Shown: piece after piece, positions 4,101 to 57,732 of the stretch
Layout of the letters: the number at the start of each line of letters is the position of its first letter
Numbering within the stretch: position 1 is the stretch's first letter
Program-made: the position numbers and the translations under genes
Virus record (IMG/VR): IMGVR_UViG_3300044557_000151
Location: 1-59,722 of that record
Origin: a virus
Taxonomy: Duplodnaviria > Heunggongvirae > Uroviricota > Caudoviricetes
Length of the DNA: 59,722 nucleotides
Direction: 5' to 3' (one strand)
The notes under the pieces: model-generated
Told to the model about the DNA's origin: nothing
The model's database searches: none
Seen by the model: only the letters and a program-made list of their open reading frames with translations

Positions 4101-7100
4101 GGGTAATCTTGGTAGTCGTCGATGTGACGCTGACGGAAACACTCTTATTTTGGAGGTGATCATATGCTCTGGTAGTCGAATTTAGTTTGGACTTATCACC
4201 TTTAACATGGACCGTAGCGCCTTTTCCGTTAAGGTTATCTAAGTCCTTTTTTGAACTCTTAATTTTGTTCTTGGCGTCCTTGTTATTCCCCTTGACTTTG
4301 ACAGTCCCACTAGCCTTATCCAGACTCTTTAAGGAGCTCTTTACGCTATCATGAGCTTTATCAAACTTCTTCTTATCACCACTAACCTTAGCAGTTGCCA
4401 TCTTTCCGTCTAAAGCTTTCAATGCGGCTTTCGCATCCTTAGTCGCCTTATTAACCTTTTTGGGGTCGGCTGACAACTCAGAATTACTTTTAACTTTATT
4501 TAAAGCCTTAACCGCGGAATTAGCCTTTTTCAAGGCGGTTGACAATCCTTTATCCTTGGCGGAAACAGATGCCACAGCCTTAGACTTATTCACAACGGCC
4601 ATTTGTTTGTTGACGTCATTTACATTCTTCTTAAAATTCTGAGTTTTAAGATTGGCGGCCATCTCAACGGTACCAGGTAACTCTTTGACGCCAGCCTTGA
4701 CATTTTGTTCCCCATTTAGGAAATTACTAATTTCCATTAACGCCTTAGTACGCTTCTCTTTAGGCATATTTTTAAGAGTCGTCATAGCCTCTTTTAAATC
4801 AATCGTACCATTCTTGTCAGTATCAACAAAATACTTTGTCTTAACATCTTTCGGAAGTGCATTGATCCCATCGAGAAGGTTAGTTACGTTATCGAAGTTG
4901 TAACTTCCATCGTTATTAACTAACGAAAACTGAGTCTTAAGGTCTTTTGGGATACCATTTAAGGCACTAAGAGTCTTTTCGGAAACGGCCCCAGTACTTT
5001 CGTCAATAAACTGGTACTTAGTTTGCTTTTCGGCAGGCAGGGCGTTAATTTCGTCGGTCATCTCCGAGACTTTTTCGCCCCAGTCATCGCCTAACAACAG
5101 GATAGATTTAGCGCTATACCCCATCAACTTGGCACCCTGGTCGCCAAACTTAGCCATTTGATCTACAAGAGCTGTCCCGCCTTTTTCATATGCTGCTACC
5201 GCCGCATCGATATCGTCTTGACTATAGCCTTGCTTATTTAAGACTTCAGACATCTTTGTTTCAGCTGTCTTCTTAGTCTCATTGTTGAGCTTTTCTTGGT
5301 CTGTAATAGCCTTCTGGACTGCCTGAGTATTCTCTTTACTCCATTGTGAAGTCGATTGACTCAGATCGGCATACGCTGGTCCAAGCTTTGCAATCACTTG
5401 TTGGTCATAAACAGTTAAATCTTGATGATTTTTAATCTTTTGATTAATCGAATCATAAATACTATTTTCTTTACTCAATTCAGTTACGGAAATTCCAGCC
5501 ATACCGACGAATGCATTCTGCTTAGCAGTTGTTGACTTCTTGGTTTTGCCCTTAATCTCGTCTGTATCAATCTCTCCGATGCTCGACATCATGGACTTTC
5601 GAACACCATGAATATCATTAACCTGTTTAGCCCACTGCGTTTCCAATTTCTTGAAGGCTTTACTATTTGCAAAGCCATCCAAATCAGAGTTGGCGGATTT
5701 AAGAGTTTCAGAGTATTCTTTGCGGAGTCTTGTTAAAGCTCCACCATCGTGGCTGAGTTGCGCATTGGCGATTTGAGTACTTAGTGATTGTAGTTGGGAA
5801 TTGTGTTGGACCCATTCTGATCTGGCAATCTTAAGTGAGTCATCCCATTTGTCTTGAAGCTTACCACTACTGAAGCTACTTACCTCGCCTAAAGCCTTAT
5901 TTACGGACTTGTTTTCAAGATAGGTTTTTGCCTCTTTGAGGGCGGCCATCTTTGACTGAACATCTTGGTAGTTGTTTACGGAAAGCTTGATATTTAGCTT
6001 CCTGTCTTTTGGAAGCTCTTTATTCAGCTCTTTAACCTGCTGATTAAATGACTTCTTCATTGACTCAAAGTTATCACCGCTGTAAGTCGCTTCTTTACCA
6101 GACTTCTTAGATGCCTCTTCAGCCTTTTTGCTCAGTGCATCGTATTGATCAAGAACTGCTTGGGCTGCATCGTAACGATTCTGTAGAAAACCGTTATTCG
6201 CAAGGCTCTTTTCTATTTTTTCCTGAGATGATGCGTATTTTTTTACTGCGGCATCGGTTTCAGTATATTTTCCTGTTAACTTGCCGAGCCAATTTGACAT
6301 TGTCGAAAATACCGGAACCCCCATTGCGTCCAAAAGACTGAGTGCAGTAATAACTCCACCGATTACTGGTATAGCTTTCGAACCAATACTCATTACCATT
6401 CCAAGTCCACTTGCAGCCTTAGATAGGAAACCCGCCTGTTTAGCTCCGGCAGCAGCTGTTTTTGCGGCGGCGGCTTCTGCTTCCTTAGTCGCCATTCTAG
6501 TGCTTACACCAGGTACATAGTCGGTAGTTGCATTTTCGAGAGCAGATGCGCCCTTCTTTAGCTTTCCGCCCCTTGTTCCAATCCCCTCATTCTTTTCTGC
6601 CGCATTCAGTTTTTCTTGTGCGGCAGTTTTCTCTTTAATGGCAATAATTCCATCCTTAACGCTCGCTAACATCGAAGCAGACGACGCGAGTGAAGATCTC
6701 ATTCCGGAAGTAATTGCTCCAAAAAGCTTACTTGCAGCCGATTGAACCGCTAAGATTGCGGCGGCCTTTAATCCAAATGTTGCAATCTTTCGAATCTTTT
6801 CGTCGCCCGCAAGTTTGGTTATCGTTTTGACTCCATTGGTAAGCGTATCAACGATGTTCCCAATATTTTTTTGTGCATTATTACCACCAGCGACAGATGT
6901 GAGGAATTTCCCCCAGGCGTTCTTCAACGCGACGATATGGAACTGCATACCTGTTTGCTGACGCGCGAATTCTTTATATGCTGAGCCATTGTCCTTATCG
7001 AATAAATCTACTTGTGCTTGGGCTTCTTTTGTAGCCTTTTCAACTCCAGTCCAGTCCTGCATAATACCTGCAAAGACGGCGGCGTGTTGCTTACCAGCAG

Positions 7101-49748: not shown

Positions 49749-49844
49749 TGTCTACGTTGAAAGGGAACGACAGCAAGGGCGCAAGCCTAAGCGGTCACGC
49801 CTTACAACCGCATCACTCAAAGGGTGAGCGTAGTTGAAAGAGTT

Positions 49845-49973
49845 TCAAATTAAGGTGTTGACAACTGATAGCAACACTGGTAAGGTTGTCACATACCAAC
49901 GCAACACGGTTTCAAAATTAAATCAAATTAAGGTGTTGACAACTGATAGCAACACTGGTAAGGTTGTCACATA
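49845..49973 (+). repeat. Two identical 51-bp promoter units (early P2 and P3)
   Basis: 49845-49895 equals 49923-49973. Each contains TTGACA-17 nt-TAAGGT with TG extension. Confidence 0.85.
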
Positions 49974-50618
49974 AGCAATAAGGGAAGCGGGTTTAAATGG
50001 TAAGCTTCCCGGCGTAAGGGCACACTAAAACGGCGCTAGATTCTACCATACAACGTAATGCCACATGTAAGGCTTACAATGTTGTCGTCGCATGGTGTTA
50101 TAGGTTTTGTTTAAACCGCTTTTCGTTCCTTGAAAATTGAATAAGCATATATGTCAGTAGCTATAAAGGTTGGCCTAACTTGAAACAGCGTTGTGATAAC
50201 GGGGTATAGTCAACATGACTGTGGTGTGAGGGCAGCGGTGTATTATGCGCATCCGAGCATTCAGAAAACACTGAGTGATACTAGATTCAACGGTGGCACA
50301 ACCGTGCCTTGCGTAGCCTTAACATGGGCTAGTGCGGGTGTTAGTTTACTTGATATTGCGGCATGACAACGGCCTGATTCTAGGCGTGACACGTTGTTGT
50401 GAGTATAGGGTTTCACCGTGTGAAATGACGCAAGTAGGGAAGCGCGGGCTTTCGGAACGGCTGTAAAAGGTCAATAAACCGCTATACGTAAACTAAAATC
50501 AATCTATATCGGTTGTAGCTAACCGGTATTTTATAGGGTATCAAATTGACGCCTTATAATATGCCATTAGCTAAACAAACACTATCTAGCGGATAGTGTT
50601 TGACAATGGGGGGAAATT

Positions 50619-51148: not shown

Positions 51149-51373
51149 ATGACACACAACTATCGGATTATGTACCACAGATATTACGACGAACGCGGCG
51201 AAAACCGTGTTTTAAAAGACATGGTGGCCTATACGCTTTTCGATGCTATCGACGAATGGAAAACGACGTCAAGTGATTTTCTGATGGCTGACAAAATCTG
51301 GCTTGAGGTTCAACATGCCGACGACTTGAGTTGTGGCGAATGGCAAACGCTAGACATGCGATACGACGGCTAA
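51149..51373 (+). CDS. Hypothetical early protein
   Basis: 74 aa, SD GGGG. Confidence 0.65.
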   Translation: MTHNYRIMYHRYYDERGENRVLKDMVAYTLFDAIDEWKTTSSDFLMADKIWLEVQHADDLSCGEWQTLDMRYDG

Positions 51374-51398: not shown

Positions 51399-51713
51399 AT
51401 GCTTAAAATCAAGAAATTTTCCGCACTTGACTATTTTGATGCTGACGACTTGACAACTGACGTAAGTACCGCCATTGCCATCTTTCCTGACGGTTCAATG
51501 GTTAATGGGTGTTTTTGTTGTGGTATACGTGGCAATGACCACAACTTGGTTATTGGGTGTCTAGATTGCGATTGGCAACAAGCGCATGACGTGTACGGTG
51601 TTGTTCGCCTTGTACCGGAAACCGGTGTCGCTTTAATTGACACTAAACAAACACTATCGTGTCAACAAGAACTTTTGGTTAAGCGCGGCGGCTATTCAGT
51701 TGAGCGTTACTAG
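51399..51713 (+). CDS. Hypothetical early protein (Cys-rich)
   Basis: 104 aa, SD GGGGGT, contains FPDG...GCFCCGIRGNDH. Confidence 0.7.
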   Translation: MLKIKKFSALDYFDADDLTTDVSTAIAIFPDGSMVNGCFCCGIRGNDHNLVIGCLDCDWQQAHDVYGVVRLVPETGVALIDTKQTLSCQQELLVKRGGYSVERY

Positions 51714-51722
51714 TGAGTTATT

Positions 51723-51779
51723 GACGGGCTATGGCGTGTGTCGCATTGCGACATAGGGTGTTCGATTCACCCGCCCGCC
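51723..51779 (+). ncRNA. Miniature tRNA-like element 1
   Basis: Acceptor-like GACGGGC/GCCCGCC, T-arm GGGTG-TTCGATT-CACCC, middle hairpin TGTGTCGC-ATT-GCGACATA. There is no D-arm and no CCA. Confidence 0.6.
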
Positions 51780-51832
51780 TTATTGAGCGCCACTATTAGG
51801 CGTATCAAGAAATTTTAAGGAGGTCTTTCAAA

Positions 51833-52303
51833 ATGAAAGAACAAAACATGACTTTAGATGAAAAACTGGCATACGTGGCAAACTATCCCGTTCAGTCAAA
51901 ACTATGGGACTATGCCACGGCTGACTTTTCAAAAGTTGAAGAAACTTTTCTGGGTTCTGCTATGGATGGGGTGGACTTGTTTGTAGAGACCGGCGTATCG
52001 CTTGACGCGCAAGGTGTTACCACCATGTATGGGCACGACAAACTTATTAAAAACGCCTTGTATGTATGCGATACGCAAGCGTATATCGACAAGAAGAACG
52101 TGTTAGGCATGACGTACAGTGAATTAACCAATGATGCCGTTATTGCAGGGCCTTTTTCGTCAATTGAAGAAATTTTAACAGACCTTGCTTGCCGTTATCA
52201 AGAAAGCGAGGGTGACGACTTATGGGGCGGTGACGACTGGCGTCATGACTTATCTATGAAACAATACGACGCTGATTTTCCAGAAACGGTAGCGGCCGAC
52301 TAG
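51833..52303 (+). CDS. Hypothetical acidic early protein
   Basis: 156 aa, SD AAGGAGGT. Confidence 0.75.
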   Translation: MKEQNMTLDEKLAYVANYPVQSKLWDYATADFSKVEETFLGSAMDGVDLFVETGVSLDAQGVTTMYGHDKLIKNALYVCDTQAYIDKKNVLGMTYSELTNDAVIAGPFSSIEEILTDLACRYQESEGDDLWGGDDWRHDLSMKQYDADFPETVAAD

Positions 52304-52391
52304 TTTTTACATTAGGCACACGATGAATTTTTCCATGGCGTGCCTTGTTGTGATAAATAGTCACGAAAACAAAGAAAATGGGGGCTTCATT

Positions 52392-52544
52392 ATGGATAAC
52401 GTAGTATACGAAAACATTGCAATCGACGGGGCGAAAGTACCGTTTAACAAGATAACGTCATGGCTTGCGCCGTATATCGAGCGTGGGGAATACGTGGTAT
52501 CTGGCGGGTTTGTGAAGTATCTTAATGCGCAAGGTGTCGAATAA
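52392..52544 (+). CDS. Hypothetical early protein (50 aa)
   Basis: ATG 52392 after GGGGG; the track start at 52323 has no SD. Confidence 0.5.
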   Translation: MDNVVYENIAIDGAKVPFNKITSWLAPYIERGEYVVSGGFVKYLNAQGVE

Positions 52545-52668
52545 ACAATCGCATTGGATAAGGATTCGCAATCATGGCAATACGCGTTTATCGTTCGTGA
52601 GTTGTCATTCTATTGTCCCAAAATCGGCCGTGAGCAAGTGCCCGGTATCGACTTCTAAAGAACTTTTA

Positions 52669-52722
52669 CCCCGCAATGGGTGTCACTTGACACGATACGG
52701 CTGTTCGATTCAGTCGGCGGGG
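52669..52722 (+). ncRNA. Miniature tRNA-like element 2
   Basis: CCCCGC/GCGGGG, T-arm CGGCTG-TTCGATT-CAGTCG, middle hairpin GTGTCA-CT-TGACAC. Confidence 0.6.
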
Positions 52723-52767
52723 ATATGCACTATTAATAATTTAAAGAATTTTTAGGAGGTATTCATT

Positions 52768-53085
52768 ATGTTTACAGCAATTAAGCAATGCGAATTATCC
52801 ATGACGGCAATTAACCGTGTCGTGCGTGGCGTCAATGCCAACGTAGAAGAACTGGACATATATTTTGATCGTAGCGGGCGTATTGTCGGAACAATCGGCT
52901 TTGGTAACTGGTACGAAAAGGGAGGCAAAACGTGGTACCCAGAAGGCGCTGTACTAGTGGCACGCGGAAGAAAATTTTCACCCATTGGCAAAGTTGACTT
53001 TGAGGAAGCAAGTGACGGTATCGACTACGCGATGGAACAACTAGAGTTTGCACAAAAGTACAGCGATTATGATTTTGAATATTAG
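52768..53085 (+). CDS. Hypothetical early protein
   Basis: 105 aa, SD AGGAGGT. Confidence 0.75.
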   Translation: MFTAIKQCELSMTAINRVVRGVNANVEELDIYFDRSGRIVGTIGFGNWYEKGGKTWYPEGAVLVARGRKFSPIGKVDFEEASDGIDYAMEQLEFAQKYSDYDFEY

Positions 53086-53116
53086 TGTAGGGAAGAATTT
53101 TTAGGAGGTTATTATC

Positions 53117-53389
53117 ATGAATAAACGTGAATTTAATAAGGCTTTAGCATTGGAATTGTCATTCTTGAAAGTACCACGCAATGCAATTTATGTACAGAAT
53201 GCCGGCAAGTTAGAAGGTGTTTCGGTACGCAAAGAAAATTTAGTCAACGCGTCAATTAATCGCAACGTTGTGACAATCGAGTGGACTACTCCGCAAGGTG
53301 TAAAGCGCGATGTTATCGACTGGAATAAGGCGTTCACACCGAACATGATCGCACTAACGGCGGATAAGTTTGTTGAAGTGTTGCGTTAA
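53117..53389 (+). CDS. Hypothetical basic early protein
   Basis: 90 aa, SD AGGAGGT. Confidence 0.75.
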   Translation: MNKREFNKALALELSFLKVPRNAIYVQNAGKLEGVSVRKENLVNASINRNVVTIEWTTPQGVKRDVIDWNKAFTPNMIALTADKFVEVLR

Positions 53390-53398
53390 AGAAAGTTT

Positions 53399-53453
53399 TG
53401 CCACGCTGGACACGTCATATCATGGCGGCCGCTGTTCGAGCCAACGGGTGGCA
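53399..53453 (+). ncRNA. Miniature tRNA-like element 3
   Basis: TGCCAC/GTGGCA, T-arm CCGCTG-TTCGAGC-CAACGG (one mismatch), middle hairpin GTCAT-ATC-ATGGC. Confidence 0.55.
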
Positions 53454-53497
53454 GTTAGCACTAGTAATAATATAAAGAAAATTTGGAGGTATACGCA

Positions 53498-54213: not shown

Positions 54214-54319
54214 TCGCTAAAATAAATATTTTATCTTTAGTAGCAGTATCTGGCGATTAAGAAATTAACCGCTGGACTAGTACCACTAATTAAACAAACA
54301 CTATATGGAGGTTATTATC

Positions 54320-54778
54320 ATGCAAGAACGTACAAAATTGGAACATCTTGACCACACTTTGGGTTATTACAAGTACTCAAATGACGCAAAGGCGGTCAAG
54401 ATTGCGGAGGCCGGGCTTGAGGCCGTCAAGCTGATGCAATTAAAGTTAAAACGGCAAGAAATTTTAACCGAACATGTAGCAGGAACTTCACCTGACGCAT
54501 GGCCGTTAAATATCTACAATCGCGAACTGGAAACACAAGAGTTTGACGTTGAAGATAACGATAACCAATATCATTGCGTGCGCAAAATTTACACGTATTA
54601 CAAAGAAGAAAACGTTGTGGGGTCTAACGGTGAATGGACAAAACGCAATGGCGAGATCGTGGCGCAAGTTGCAGAACAAAATTGGTTCGCAGGTTATGGT
54701 GTGCAAGTTGAGGGTAAAGGTTACGTGTTCTTATGGAATGAAAACAAACGCGAAGACAATAAGGTAGTTGATGATTAG
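54320..54778 (+). CDS. Hypothetical early protein
   Basis: ATG 54320 after SD GGAGGT, 152 aa. Confidence 0.72.
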   Translation: MQERTKLEHLDHTLGYYKYSNDAKAVKIAEAGLEAVKLMQLKLKRQEILTEHVAGTSPDAWPLNIYNRELETQEFDVEDNDNQYHCVRKIYTYYKEENVVGSNGEWTKRNGEIVAQVAEQNWFAGYGVQVEGKGYVFLWNENKREDNKVVDD

Positions 54779-54864
54779 ATGCTGTTACTATCTGGCGGGC
54801 AAAGAATTTTTTGACCGCTGGTCGTGAGTACCTAATACATATCAATAAATGGAGGTTGTGAACT

Positions 54865-55101
54865 ATGCAAGAAATTATCAAAGAACTACACAACGGCGGT
54901 CGGCTTTGGGTTTTGTATCCAGAAGGCGAGTTTGGCTTTGCCGATGAAAAGAATGGCATGGCCGGATTATTTGATCGCTGGGGCAAAGCGTTGCATGAAG
55001 TGCGAACAAGTACAGTTACCAAGTTAATCGAGCAAGGGTATATCGAACGGCCTAGTTACCAATGCCAACGCGACTATGAAGCAAAGAATTTGTTGAAGTA
55101 A
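54865..55101 (+). CDS. Hypothetical early protein
   Basis: 78 aa, SD GGAGGT. Confidence 0.7.
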   Translation: MQEIIKELHNGGRLWVLYPEGEFGFADEKNGMAGLFDRWGKALHEVRTSTVTKLIEQGYIERPSYQCQRDYEAKNLLK

Positions 55102-55153
55102 AAATGACTGTTTTATGTAGCAAACAAATAAAGAAATTTTGGAGGAAACAAAC

Positions 55154-55756
55154 ATGACACCACAAAAATTAATGGAAGCATTCATCAATGACACAAAGAA
55201 GACACACACTTACGACGTTCACCCAACGGGTTTAATTTGTGGCAAGAATACAATTGGGGGCGGGGCGCATGGGCTTGTCGCCTTGTATGGAGATCAAAGC
55301 GGAGAAACATTCACCGGCGAACGTAACGCCTATCAGAAGCTGTTTGAGCAAGAAGATGCCTTGACGACGCCAATGGTCAAGATTGAGTATTCAGAATGTA
55401 AAGAAATTATTGCCGTTATCAAAGACTGGTCGAAAAATTGGAAGTCGCTTGGGCTGGAAAATGCCCGGAAGTTTCCGGTTCGGCTAGAAAATATTGATGG
55501 CAAACTATCCGTTAACCCACAACGGGTAATAGATAACGACGAGATGAAACACTTCGAGGCGCAGACCGTAGATAATGACGTAAGTATCTATTTTCGGGCA
55601 GATTTATTGAAAAAGACGCTTGAAACAGTAAAGCGCGGTAGCTCAATCACGATGAACGTTGACAATAATTGCAACGTCAAACGCCCGCTACTACGCCCCG
55701 CAGTATTTAAGTCTGACAACTGGGCGGCCTTGATCGCGCCATTGCGAGTTTGGTAA
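55154..55756 (+). CDS. Protein with DNA sliding clamp (DnaN) C-terminal-like region
   Basis: ATG 55154 (SD GGAGG). The C-terminus SIYFRADLLKKTLE...ITMNV...RPAVFKSDNWAALIAPLRV resembles the last domain of the beta clamp. Confidence 0.45.
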   Translation: MTPQKLMEAFINDTKKTHTYDVHPTGLICGKNTIGGGAHGLVALYGDQSGETFTGERNAYQKLFEQEDALTTPMVKIEYSECKEIIAVIKDWSKNWKSLGLENARKFPVRLENIDGKLSVNPQRVIDNDEMKHFEAQTVDNDVSIYFRADLLKKTLETVKRGSSITMNVDNNCNVKRPLLRPAVFKSDNWAALIAPLRVW

Positions 55757-55846
55757 CAAAGAAATTTTTGATATACGGGTGTGGCCACCATTAATGGTGG
55801 CTAGTCTTGTGTACCAAAACTAATAAATTTTTGAGGAGAAAACATT

Positions 55847-56275
55847 ATGACATTTACAATTAGAGATAGTTTTACTACAACTATGAATGATGCTGGGCAA
55901 TTGGTCGTAACAATGGACGAGATCGGAATTACGCGTGATGCGGCGATTGCCATTGACGAAAGTTTCCAGTCTTGGGTGGAGCAAGAAGTTTTCCCGCTTA
56001 TCCCCGGCGATGATGAACAAGTGATTTTAGATGACGTGTTAGAAGATTCAACCTATACAAAGGTCGATCAATGGAATGATGAAGACCCAAGCGAAGACAA
56101 TCTGTTATGGCAGAACACTGTTCGTGACAACCCGAAAATGCTGGTCGATGCAATCTGTGTAACGGCTGAAAAATGGTACAACTTACCGGACGATGTGCAA
56201 GTATATGCGTTACCACGAGAATTTTTCTGGGATTGCTGGAATGCTGAAATGGAAGCAAGCCTTATCGAAGATTAG
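55847..56275 (+). CDS. Hypothetical highly acidic early protein
   Basis: 142 aa, SD GAGGAG, rich in Asp/Glu and Trp. Confidence 0.75.
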   Translation: MTFTIRDSFTTTMNDAGQLVVTMDEIGITRDAAIAIDESFQSWVEQEVFPLIPGDDEQVILDDVLEDSTYTKVDQWNDEDPSEDNLLWQNTVRDNPKMLVDAICVTAEKWYNLPDDVQVYALPREFFWDCWNAEMEASLIED

Positions 56276-56362
56276 TTAGTTGCGGTTGTGGTCGCGAGTT
56301 TAAAGAAATTCACGGCCATTCTGGAGCCAATTAAAAATATTTGAAATATGGAGGTAATTAAC

Positions 56363-56719
56363 ATGACCGAATTTATTACAGTATCGAAGCGTGAGGAATT
56401 TTTGGAAGGTTTACGGAGGGCCGCAAGGATTGTTGAAATTGAAACAAGTAAGCCAGCAGATCAATGGGAAGTTGATGACAGTAACATGCTAACCGCAGTT
56501 GAATTTTACGATGGATATAGCGCAGTACAATTTCGCATGTGGCCAGCAACAGTGGCAACTGAAGCAAAAATCCAGATTATCGGTGAATATGATGGTGGCG
56601 ACGACGAGCGAGGTTCTATCTGGTTAGATATGAACGGTTCAACGAGCGAAAAACTAGAGCTCGCGGCGCTCAAGTATGTGTTGCTTAATAAAGAATATTT
56701 AATTGGCGATGAAGCATAG
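56363..56719 (+). CDS. Hypothetical acidic early protein
   Basis: ATG 56363 after SD GGAGGT, 118 aa. Confidence 0.72.
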   Translation: MTEFITVSKREEFLEGLRRAARIVEIETSKPADQWEVDDSNMLTAVEFYDGYSAVQFRMWPATVATEAKIQIIGEYDGGDDERGSIWLDMNGSTSEKLELAALKYVLLNKEYLIGDEA

Positions 56720-56764
56720 ATAAAACACGTCTTTTAGAAAGTCAATCAAAAGGAGAAATTAATC

Positions 56765-56980
56765 ATGAAAAATCAAATTATCGTTACAAATGCAATGGGC
56801 GAACGCGAAGAAACTTTAGGCACATTTGATACACCGCAGCAGGCATGGGACACGGCGCAAGAAGATTGGAATAAGCGCGGTCTAGATATTTCGTACTGGA
56901 GCTATTATTTCTACAACGCCCGGACGAAAGAAGAAATTGATATGGTGTCGCTGATTGATGAAGGCGTTGTTGCCGCATAA
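56765..56980 (+). CDS. Hypothetical early protein
   Basis: 71 aa, SD AAGGAG. Confidence 0.72.
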   Translation: MKNQIIVTNAMGEREETLGTFDTPQQAWDTAQEDWNKRGLDISYWSYYFYNARTKEEIDMVSLIDEGVVAA

Positions 56981-56994
56981 AGGAGAAATTAATC

Positions 56995-57225
56995 ATGAAA
57001 ACATTCAAATTTGCTGGTGTCACTGATATGGAAAATGCTTGGCTGAACGTAACTATCAAGTCGGTTGCAAAAATTTACGTTCGAGGTCTAATTACGATGA
57101 GTGAAGCGCGCTACGAGATCACACGCAGGATTCAAGAACGGTTTGGTTGGTCCGAAATCACCTTTAATACAGTTACTAATATCACTGATAACGACATTAA
57201 GATGGTAGGACAACGGGTAGCTTAG
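56995..57225 (+). CDS. Hypothetical early protein
   Basis: 76 aa. It shares a 23-bp leader (AAAGGAGAAATTAATCATGAAAA) with the preceding gene. Confidence 0.72.
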   Translation: MKTFKFAGVTDMENAWLNVTIKSVAKIYVRGLITMSEARYEITRRIQERFGWSEITFNTVTNITDNDIKMVGQRVA

Positions 57226-57308
57226 TAGTTGGCTGATTCTGGTAGGCAAGAAATTGTCTGCTAGACTTGAACCAACTATTATGAGAACACAAAACGGAGG
57301 AAATTATC

Positions 57309-57653
57309 ATGAGTGAACAACAATATATTATGGACTATCGTGCAATCTGGGAAGCGCGCGACTTACAACGTTGGTTTGATAGTGTCACAGATGCTGGCAT
57401 GAATGTGTATGTACGTGCTCAACAATTCCATAAGCCAGAAGGATATGGCGCTGGAGAATTTATTCAATACAGACTTGAATTTACATTCGGTGAGGAAAAT
57501 TTTGACGATCTGGAAGAAGATAATTTCGACTTCTGGTTTAGTCATGAAGATACTGGATCAGACTTCTGGCGCTTCCTTGCGGTTGCTGAAGATCAGGGTG
57601 AGAAAAACGACTTAGTGAAGTACGATGACCAACTGTTATTAGATTTTGATTAG
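57309..57653 (+). CDS. Hypothetical highly acidic early protein
   Basis: 114 aa, SD GGAGG, contains EENFDDLEEDNFDFWFSHEDTGSDFW. Confidence 0.75.
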   Translation: MSEQQYIMDYRAIWEARDLQRWFDSVTDAGMNVYVRAQQFHKPEGYGAGEFIQYRLEFTFGEENFDDLEEDNFDFWFSHEDTGSDFWRFLAVAEDQGEKNDLVKYDDQLLLDFD

Positions 57654-57732
57654 TTAGCTGATTCTGATCGGTAAGAAATTATCGGTCGGGCTTGAGCCAA
57701 CTAATAGCAGTCAAAAATAGGAGGAAATTATC

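Follow-up and report, generated by a model that had tools for sequence, protein, structure and literature searches.

Three short elements that fold like a transfer RNA (tRNA) lie between small genes of a phage, at positions 51723-51779 (el1), 52669-52722 (el2) and 53399-53453 (el3), exactly where a preliminary description had placed them. The window is the whole 59,722-nucleotide (nt) stretch analysed, i.e. the first 59.7 kb of the 123.7-kb virus record IMGVR_UViG_3300044557_000151. The elements are real and non-random: they share one structure, occur more often than expected by chance, are all intergenic on the sense strand, and are conserved as modules in relatives of the phage. According to the reading we favour, with a probability of about 0.5, they would be cut signals for ribonuclease P (RNase P) and RNase Z in an early polycistron, similar to the t-elements of plant mitochondria. 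We infer both the cleavage and its effect on the stability of the messenger RNA (mRNA).

All three copies have the topology described earlier, i.e. an acceptor-like stem stacked on a T-arm, a TGG-containing linker, a single middle hairpin and no CCA. Their parts are:

el1, 51723..51779, plus strand, 57 nt
el1 acceptor stem, 51723-51729 / 51773-51779, 7 base pairs (bp) with an A.C mismatch at pair 2
el1 linker UAUGGCG, 51730-51736
el1 middle hairpin, 51737-51755, 8 bp with the 3-nt loop AUU
el1 T-stem, 51756-51760 / 51768-51772, 5 bp; T-loop UUCGAUU, 51761-51767
el2, 52669..52722, plus strand, 54 nt
el2 acceptor stem, 52669-52674 / 52717-52722, 6 bp
el2 linker AAUGG, 52675-52679
el2 middle hairpin, 52680-52693, 5 bp with the 4-nt loop ACUU; junction GAUA, 52694-52697
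el2 T-stem, 52698-52703 / 52711-52716, 6 bp with one G.U; T-loop UUCGAUU, 52704-52710
el3, 53399..53453, plus strand, 55 nt, the weakest copy
el3 acceptor stem, 53399-53404 / 53448-53453, 6 bp
el3 linker GCUGGACA, starting GCUGG, 53405-53412
el3 middle hairpin, 53413-53427, 6 bp including a U.G, with the 3-nt loop AUC
el3 T-stem, 53429-53434 / 53442-53447, 6 bp with a central C.A mismatch; T-loop UUCGAGC, 53435-53441

The 3' strand of each element runs through 12 unbroken paired positions, first the T-stem strand of 5-6 nt and then the acceptor strand of 6-7 nt, which is the length of the acceptor/T stack in a tRNA. An invariant block, UG-UUCGA-NN-CA, is found in three of three copies and contains U54, A58 and the G53-C61 pair, with a U-A pair before the closing G-C. 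The position of the D-arm is taken by a linker 'NNUGG' of 5-8 nt, with GG at linker positions 4-5 in every copy, and 0-4 nt separate the middle hairpin from the T-stem. No CCA follows any of the elements, there is no C at positions 74-75, and pair 3-70 is C-G in all three.

RNAfold recovers the tRNA-like fold for el1 (z -2.55) and el2 (z -3.64), and the pairs of el2 have probabilities of 0.99 with 0-80 nt of flanking sequence. For el3 the acceptor and the middle hairpin are predicted and the T-arm is missed (z -0.43); its T-stem is interrupted by the C.A mismatch, and therefore the tRNA-like fold is not the one of minimum free energy (MFE). On the reverse strand el1 folds no better and el2 and el3 fold worse, the plus strand making use of G.U pairs.

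A strict descriptor, asking for a T-loop, an early GG, at least 11 paired positions of the 12 in the stack, and 14-31 nt of interior that contain a hairpin of 5 bp or longer, matches el1, el2, el3 and a part of an odd tRNA-like gene on both strands of the 123.7 kb and nothing else, and 100 dinucleotide-shuffled genomes give on average 0.33 matches, with a maximum of 2. When a covariance model is derived from el2 only, its four matches in the window include el1 (E 0.11) and el3 (E 3.6), and a model from all three sequences finds no further match in the whole genome.

MAFFT mis-aligned the 5' strands of the three elements, and the single-sequence covariance model followed by re-alignment was used instead. 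In the model-fitted alignment 94% of the cells pair, and both partners change between copies in 7 of the 12 pairs. None of 500 shuffles pairs as well, and slid partners pair at 31-54%. The resulting model, R2, contains only the acceptor and T helices, as no shared columns could be assigned to the middle hairpins. The internal covariation claimed in the preliminary description therefore stands as a count and is weaker than was stated: the count rests on three paralogues aligned to a one-copy model, and what it demonstrates is a shared architecture, not evolutionary covariation.

The terminase of the phage is ~42% identical to those of SPbeta-group phages of Bacillus and Lysinibacillus, and other proteins in the window include a RepA_N initiator, a ParM-like actin and a UvrD helicase. 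It is a large, SPbeta-like phage, probably of a Gram-positive (Firmicute) host. Past ~50.6 kb every credible gene is small and read from the plus strand, and the short spacers between the genes contain strong AGGAGG-type ribosome sites. Each element is intergenic, in sense orientation, between co-oriented open reading frames (ORFs), and a tRNA-like element is present at only 3 of the ~25 junctions of this region. From the gene orientation and the absence of terminators, the three elements appear to belong to one plus-strand early polycistron.

Terminator prediction gave none at any element nor between el1 and el3, the nearest being inside ORFs upstream of el1 and at 55782. An intrinsic terminator combines a GC-rich hairpin with a U-tract, and the trailers of the elements have no U-runs. 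No sigma-70-like promoter was predicted at the elements either, which is how the CACTAKTA box behind them might have been read. The ORFs that overlap el2 and el3 in a mechanical list are spurious; in relatives the real upstream gene stops, in another frame, at a TAA abutting el2. At position 52542 a CAA of the relatives is TAA in the window, and the gene ahead of el2 is cut to 50 amino acids (aa), compared with 88 aa in the relatives L003 and L005, which creates an apparent 124-nt non-coding stretch upstream of el2.

The sequences on both sides of the elements are also alike:

51667..51675, plus strand, AAGAACTTT motif upstream of el1, within the 3' end of a 104-aa ORF
51780..51832, plus strand, el1 trailer, beginning UUAU, with discriminator U and then U74; CACTATTA box at 51791-51798, AAGAAATTT at 51807-51815, Shine-Dalgarno (SD) sequence AAGGAGG at 51817-51823, 156-aa ORF from 51833
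52655..52668, plus strand, stop TAA of the full-length upstream ORF of relatives, fused to AAGAACTTTTA and directly abutting el2
52723..52767, plus strand, el2 trailer, beginning AUAU, with discriminator A and then U74; CACTATTA at 52728-52735, AAGAATTTT at 52744-52752, SD AGGAGG at 52754-52759, 105-aa ORF from 52768
53387..53398, plus strand, stop TAA of a 90-aa ORF, fused to AAGAAAGTTT and directly abutting el3
53454..53497, plus strand, el3 trailer, beginning GUUA, with discriminator G and then U74; CACTAGTA at 53459-53466, AAGAAAATTT at 53475-53484, SD GGAGG at 53485-53489, 83-aa ORF from 53498

In the window every element is indeed followed by CACTA(T/G)TA and then by an AAGAA motif and an SD, as had been noted, and on the plus strand of the genome CACTAKTA has four sites, three of which are these trailers. 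The arrangement is not constant in relatives, as contig L008 demonstrates below. An AAGAA(C/A)(T/G)TT motif, missed at the first reading, is also present upstream of each element, and the TAA-AAGAACTTTTA motif moves together with el2 into other gene contexts. Between window position 51373 and 59000, and on to genome position ~61.3 kb, there are 24 plus-strand copies of AAGAA(A/T)TTT and two minus-strand ones, usually fused to the upstream TAA stop and 0-3 nt ahead of the SD. With an AAGAA-type motif on both sides, fused to a stop for el2 and el3, each element behaves as an ORF-less cassette in a cassette-built operon.

With the flanking proteins or DNA as query, no relatives were found among INPHARED phages, PLSDB plasmids, IMG/VR and GTDB genomes, and an exact-pattern scan found no el2 in IMG/VR or the JGI metagenomes. 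Near relatives came from public metagenome runs and assemblies, and nine contigs were obtained by exact-protein look-up. In seven of the contigs el3 is identical, while the adjoining 90-aa ORF varies at ~3% and the 105-aa ORF at ~10% of columns. The substitutions seen in relatives, two in el2 and one in el1, all fall in unpaired linker or junction bases (3 of 3). At this low divergence the stronger conservation of the elements over their neighbour genes is suggestive. el2 is kept in L002, L003, L005 and L008 and in the runs X3 and X23, amid different gene contexts; in X23, a metatranscriptome, it is found at 100% identity in contigs, which cannot show ends and are not proof of transcription or processing.

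Genes come and go around the elements. el1 and its 156-aa ORF (51709-52298) are absent from L002, L003 and L005, and together they form an insertion/deletion cassette whose two joints are marked by ACTAGT. Among 5.8 billion proteins there is no homologue of the 156-aa protein. In L008 el1 is present with one linker change and a different trailer, new genes take over behind it at 51781 and ahead of el2 as far as 52656, and the trailer of el2 is of the el3 type. The variant trailers of L008 start UUUA and GUUG, with U74 kept in both, and since trailers differ or have been exchanged the CACTA box is not a fixed part of the element. L002 has two extra ORFs inserted directly after TAAAGAAA, ahead of el3, and in L005, L006 and L009 the 83-aa ORF after el3 has been replaced by recombination in the motif/SD. 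AAGAA(A/T)TTT is the commonest recombination joint between gene cassettes in the relatives. Swaps, insertions and deletions fall exactly on the AAGAA motif or on the ends of the elements, which marks every element as a discrete module.

If the elements act as t-element-like signals, each would correspond to the top half of a tRNA, with a true T-loop on top of an acceptor/T-stem stack of 12 bp, the linker GG in the role of G18-G19 of the D-loop, forming the elbow, and a short hairpin at the position of the anticodon stem. Host RNase P would cut at the 5' end of the acceptor stem, and host RNase Z would then cut after the discriminator (no CCA, U74). The message would be split, with the downstream unit beginning ~30-45 nt ahead of a strong AAGAA-SD ribosome site, and a tRNA-like RNA of ~55 nt would be released, which may receive CCA.

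We favour this model because the features that are retained are those that the tRNA end-processing enzymes read. As in t-elements, a tRNA-like but non-canonical fold, in which the T-arm motif and the acceptor are conserved, lies on the sense strand of what is probably a longer transcript. In Bacillus subtilis, RNase Z touches only the acceptor stem and the T-arm, and CC or CCA after the discriminator inhibits it (PMC7479834). RNase P of this species cleaves precursors without CCA in vivo and is believed to come before RNase Z where the 5' leader is long (PMC1874595, which also contains a U74/A75 example). The 3' context of el1-el3, with no CC or CCA after the discriminator, is compatible with RNase Z. 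The own six tRNA genes and the transfer-messenger RNA (tmRNA) of the phage are likewise all CCA-less, and in 6 of 7 a U follows the discriminator. RNase Z has a preference for U74. Among the phage proteins there is no CCA-adding enzyme and no member of an RNase Z-type or RnpA family, and the enzymes at work would therefore be those of the host. Of the RNase P/RNase Z punctuation proposed in the preliminary description, the minimal determinants (12-bp stack, T-loop with G53-C61, GG, no CCA, U74), the sense-strand position and the modularity are borne out, and cleavage is plausible.

Several points weigh on the other side. The bacterial RNase Z may tolerate truncated tRNAs less well than the archaeal enzymes (PMC7479834), and for el3 the tRNA-like fold has -15.9 kcal/mol, compared with -19.6 kcal/mol for the MFE structure. 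There are three copies only, and the relatives, 2-10% diverged, are too close for compensatory changes. A cut by RNase P would leave the 3' end of the upstream mRNA unprotected, which makes a benefit to the phage questionable. Finally, the covariance model R2 finds no similar element in SPbeta, LC76P1, a staphylococcal SPbeta-like phage and the gut phage MT835469.

A covariance search of phage genomes had been suggested as a check of the elements, and run with R2 it returned no comparable element in the phages searched, which makes the trait lineage-specific. Lactococcus phage 949 has one R2 match, of 76 nt, which is probably a genuine tRNA. A scan of IMG/VR for ATGG-N12-30-TGTTCGATTCA gave 119 loci, most of them ordinary tRNAs. 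Two unrelated IMG/VR contigs (L040, minus strand 6308-6370 of the reverse complement, and L041:3826-3880) have ARAGORN-negative tRNA-like folds of 55-63 nt with the TGTTCGATTCA T-arm and a 12-bp stack.

The elements are not canonical tRNAs. ARAGORN reports no tRNA gene in the window in either bacterial or mitochondrial mode, and Rfam has no match to the elements at the gathering threshold; the lone sub-threshold match is to tRNA-Sec (19 bits, E 1.5), for an extended el1. The T-arm is that of a tRNA, with a UUCRANY loop, G53-C61 closure and stacking on the acceptor over 12 bp, apart from the C.A mismatch in el3 and the A.C mismatch in el1. The D-arm of a cloverleaf is replaced by the 5-8-nt linker, and instead of a 7-nt anticodon loop with U33 the hairpin loops are AUU, ACUU and AUC. 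Extended 'tRNA' forms of 76-94 nt appear only under relaxed ARAGORN thresholds and were treated as noise; the extended pairing is not conserved, as the context upstream of el3 differs in L002. The tRNA-like domain of a tmRNA was also considered and rejected, as G3.U70 is missing and no tmRNA model matches.

Among the alternatives, the released RNAs of ~55 nt could themselves be the functional product, tRNA mimics that are possibly CCA-tagged, with the cutting of the mRNA merely freeing them; they would bind or titrate a host or phage factor that recognises the elbow or the acceptor end of tRNAs, for which RNase P, a tRNA-modifying enzyme, the CCA-adding enzyme, a sensor of a defence system and a toxin acting on acceptor ends come into question. 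The elements would fit this as ORF-less cassettes bounded by the same TAA-AGAA motif as the protein-coding cassettes, their sequence is kept as well as their structure, as in the seven contigs with identical el3, and the early region of the relatives is rich in toxin-antitoxin and Fic genes. However, G3.U70 or any other recognisable identity set is missing, and almost all stem positions differ among the copies, so that there is no common ligand surface beyond the T-loop and the GG. Anticodon nucleases are excluded as targets, and the idea of a decoy for them, put forward in the preliminary description, is not supported: a 3-4-nt hairpin loop is not the 7-nt anticodon loop of such a substrate. 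Overall we find functional mimicry rather unlikely.

A second alternative needs no tRNA enzymes. The elements would be generic stable structures that bind a phage protein or block exonucleases, shielding either the 3' end of the upstream cistron or, from RNase J1, the 5' end of the downstream one, and the AAGAA motif would be the real cleavage or regulatory site. This agrees with the AAGAA-type motif directly beside each element on both sides, with its presence at nearly every junction of the early region (24 plus against 2 minus), and with the second family of plain hairpins at other junctions. A barrier has no need, however, of an invariant T-loop with G53-C61, a fixed 12-bp stack, a GG at fixed offset and U74, and these tRNA features recur in an unrelated phage. 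We judge it unlikely.

Both types of signal can be combined into a two-tier punctuation, with AAGAA-SD at every junction and plain hairpins or tRNA mimics added at a subset. The mimics would be excised by RNase P and RNase Z, CCA-tagged and accumulate as small RNAs, which would tie up or divert a host factor recognising the elbow or the acceptor end of tRNA, e.g. a tRNA-directed defence or toxin, or RNase P. We hold this elaborate version to be distinctly doubtful; if it were true, tRNA-like minihelices would be a widespread undescribed class of phage RNA with a function beyond cutting.

Decay is very unlikely as the origin of the elements, i.e. that tRNA genes decayed or were truncated, or that recombination or integration left behind copies of tRNA 3' halves, in either case with no function now. 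The phage does have a tRNA cluster with an aberrant gene, the T-stem of el3 is defective, and el1 has its weak 19-bit similarity to tRNA-Sec. But three independent decays would not converge on one 54-57-nt design with matching 5' acceptor strands, and the elements are unchanged in relatives while neighbour genes vary or turn over. In addition, el2 starts with C and el3 with U, which is unusual for tRNAs, and the 3' half of el1 has no exact copy among 185,579 GTDB species genomes and is therefore not a borrowed host tRNA end.

Least of all do we believe in DNA-level sites, folded like attC, that drive gene shuffling at cassette boundaries in the relatives: breakpoints 51781 and 52656 are at element ends and the el1 cassette has ACTAGT at both joints, but most breakpoints are in the AAGAA/SD motif at element-free junctions, any conserved module amid variable genes shows breakpoints at its edges, no association with a recombinase was seen, and the T-loop identity and strand-specific G.U pairs indicate RNA.

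The tRNA cluster of the phage is outside the window, at genome position 75558-78286, and contains Arg-TCT, Leu-TAG, Asn-GTT, Asp-GTC and Ser-GCT. It includes the aberrant tRNA-like gene (77070-77144), which has a malformed anticodon loop, and the tmRNA (77803-78155), with the tag AKQNDLVAA*. Structured spacers and an HNH-like ORF are found between the cluster genes.

Other structures accompany the early region. At several junctions between 54237 and 57704 there are long hairpins with the AAGAAATT motif as apical loop and plus-strand G.U pairs in the stems, which are possibly RNase III-type sites, i.e. a second kind of punctuation. The region 49750-50610 is ORF-free and GC-balanced and follows two repeated TTGACA-containing units (49856, 49934); it is structured, and as a phage RNase P RNA it gave no Rfam match even at E 10. 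The 12-mer AAACAAACACTA has seven copies, every one of them on the plus strand (window 50573, 51645 and 54292; genome 68723, 75521, 86167 and 111757), several of them within the inverted repeat AAACACTA...GTGTTT, and it is a candidate phage-specific promoter or operator. The stretches L003:1692-2945 and L006:6973-10075 of the relatives contain further genes: one relative has an IS605 OrfB/TnpB insertion near the ParM-like gene, and Phd/YoeB, a MazE-like gene and two Fic genes are present in the early region of the relatives.

A full-text literature search found no publication on such tRNA-like elements in phages. In the textbook cases, phage mRNA is processed by RNase III, as in T7 and SP82, or by phage nucleases such as RegB. 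In the early mRNA of phage T7 and of the B. subtilis phage SP82, intercistronic hairpins recruit RNase III, a host endonuclease that cuts the message into stable units. These sites are long irregular hairpins for another enzyme, and the plain hairpins at 54237-57704 are closer to them than el1-el3 are.

In animal mitochondria, and in the release of mascRNA from MALAT1, tRNAs or tRNA-like folds are the sites where RNase P and RNase Z cut long transcripts. There, full tRNAs or a cloverleaf mimic are used in eukaryotes, whereas el1-el3 are truncated mimics in a phage, at 3 of ~25 junctions. The tRNA-like domain of tmRNA shares with them the acceptor and T-arm, an unpaired analogue of the D-loop and a helix in place of the anticodon stem, but el1-el3 lack G3.U70 and a tmRNA-type linker, and have no Rfam tmRNA match.

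The nearest published analogues are the plant mitochondrial t-elements, at whose ends RNase P and RNase Z generate mRNA termini, with non-encoded C or CA additions (Forner et al. 2007, PMC1920247). Like them, el1-el3 combine a non-canonical tRNA-like fold with a conserved T-arm and acceptor inside what are probably longer transcripts. The t-elements are organellar or archaeal, often of 70 nt or more and cloverleaf-like, and their cleavage was demonstrated by experiment; a t-element is reportedly also used in Haloferax. In contrast, el1-el3 are 54-57 nt long, belong to a phage early operon, are known from sequence, and have NNUGG for the D-arm and an 'anticodon' hairpin without an anticodon loop.

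Among phages, the mycobacteriophage Send513 (JF704112) has at least 11 intergenic minihelices of 42 nt, on the sense strand between small genes. They share with el1-el3 the 12-bp acceptor/T stack, a UUCGANU T-loop, GG at linker positions 4-5 and no encoded CCA; their linkers start ACUGG, AAUGG or AAAGG, compared with UAUGG, AAUGG and GCUGG in el1-el3. However, the Send513 copies are near-uniform two-helix structures of ~40-42 nt in which an 11-nt linker leads straight into the T-stem, while el1-el3, at 54-57 nt, have unrelated stems and an extra 5-8-bp hairpin in the linker, i.e. a three-way design resembling a tRNA that lacks the D-arm and the anticodon loop. The host phylum also differs, Actinobacteria for Send513 and Firmicutes here. 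Given the inserted hairpin, el1-el3 are a variant of the Send513-type minihelices and not the same family by sequence. If RNase P and RNase Z do cut both types, at least two bacterial phyla would have phages that borrow host tRNA maturation to shape their early transcripts, and compact processing modules of 42-57 nt could serve for multiplexed expression in Gram-positive bacteria. What is new here is the distinct three-way design, moving as a discrete cassette in a mosaic early region.

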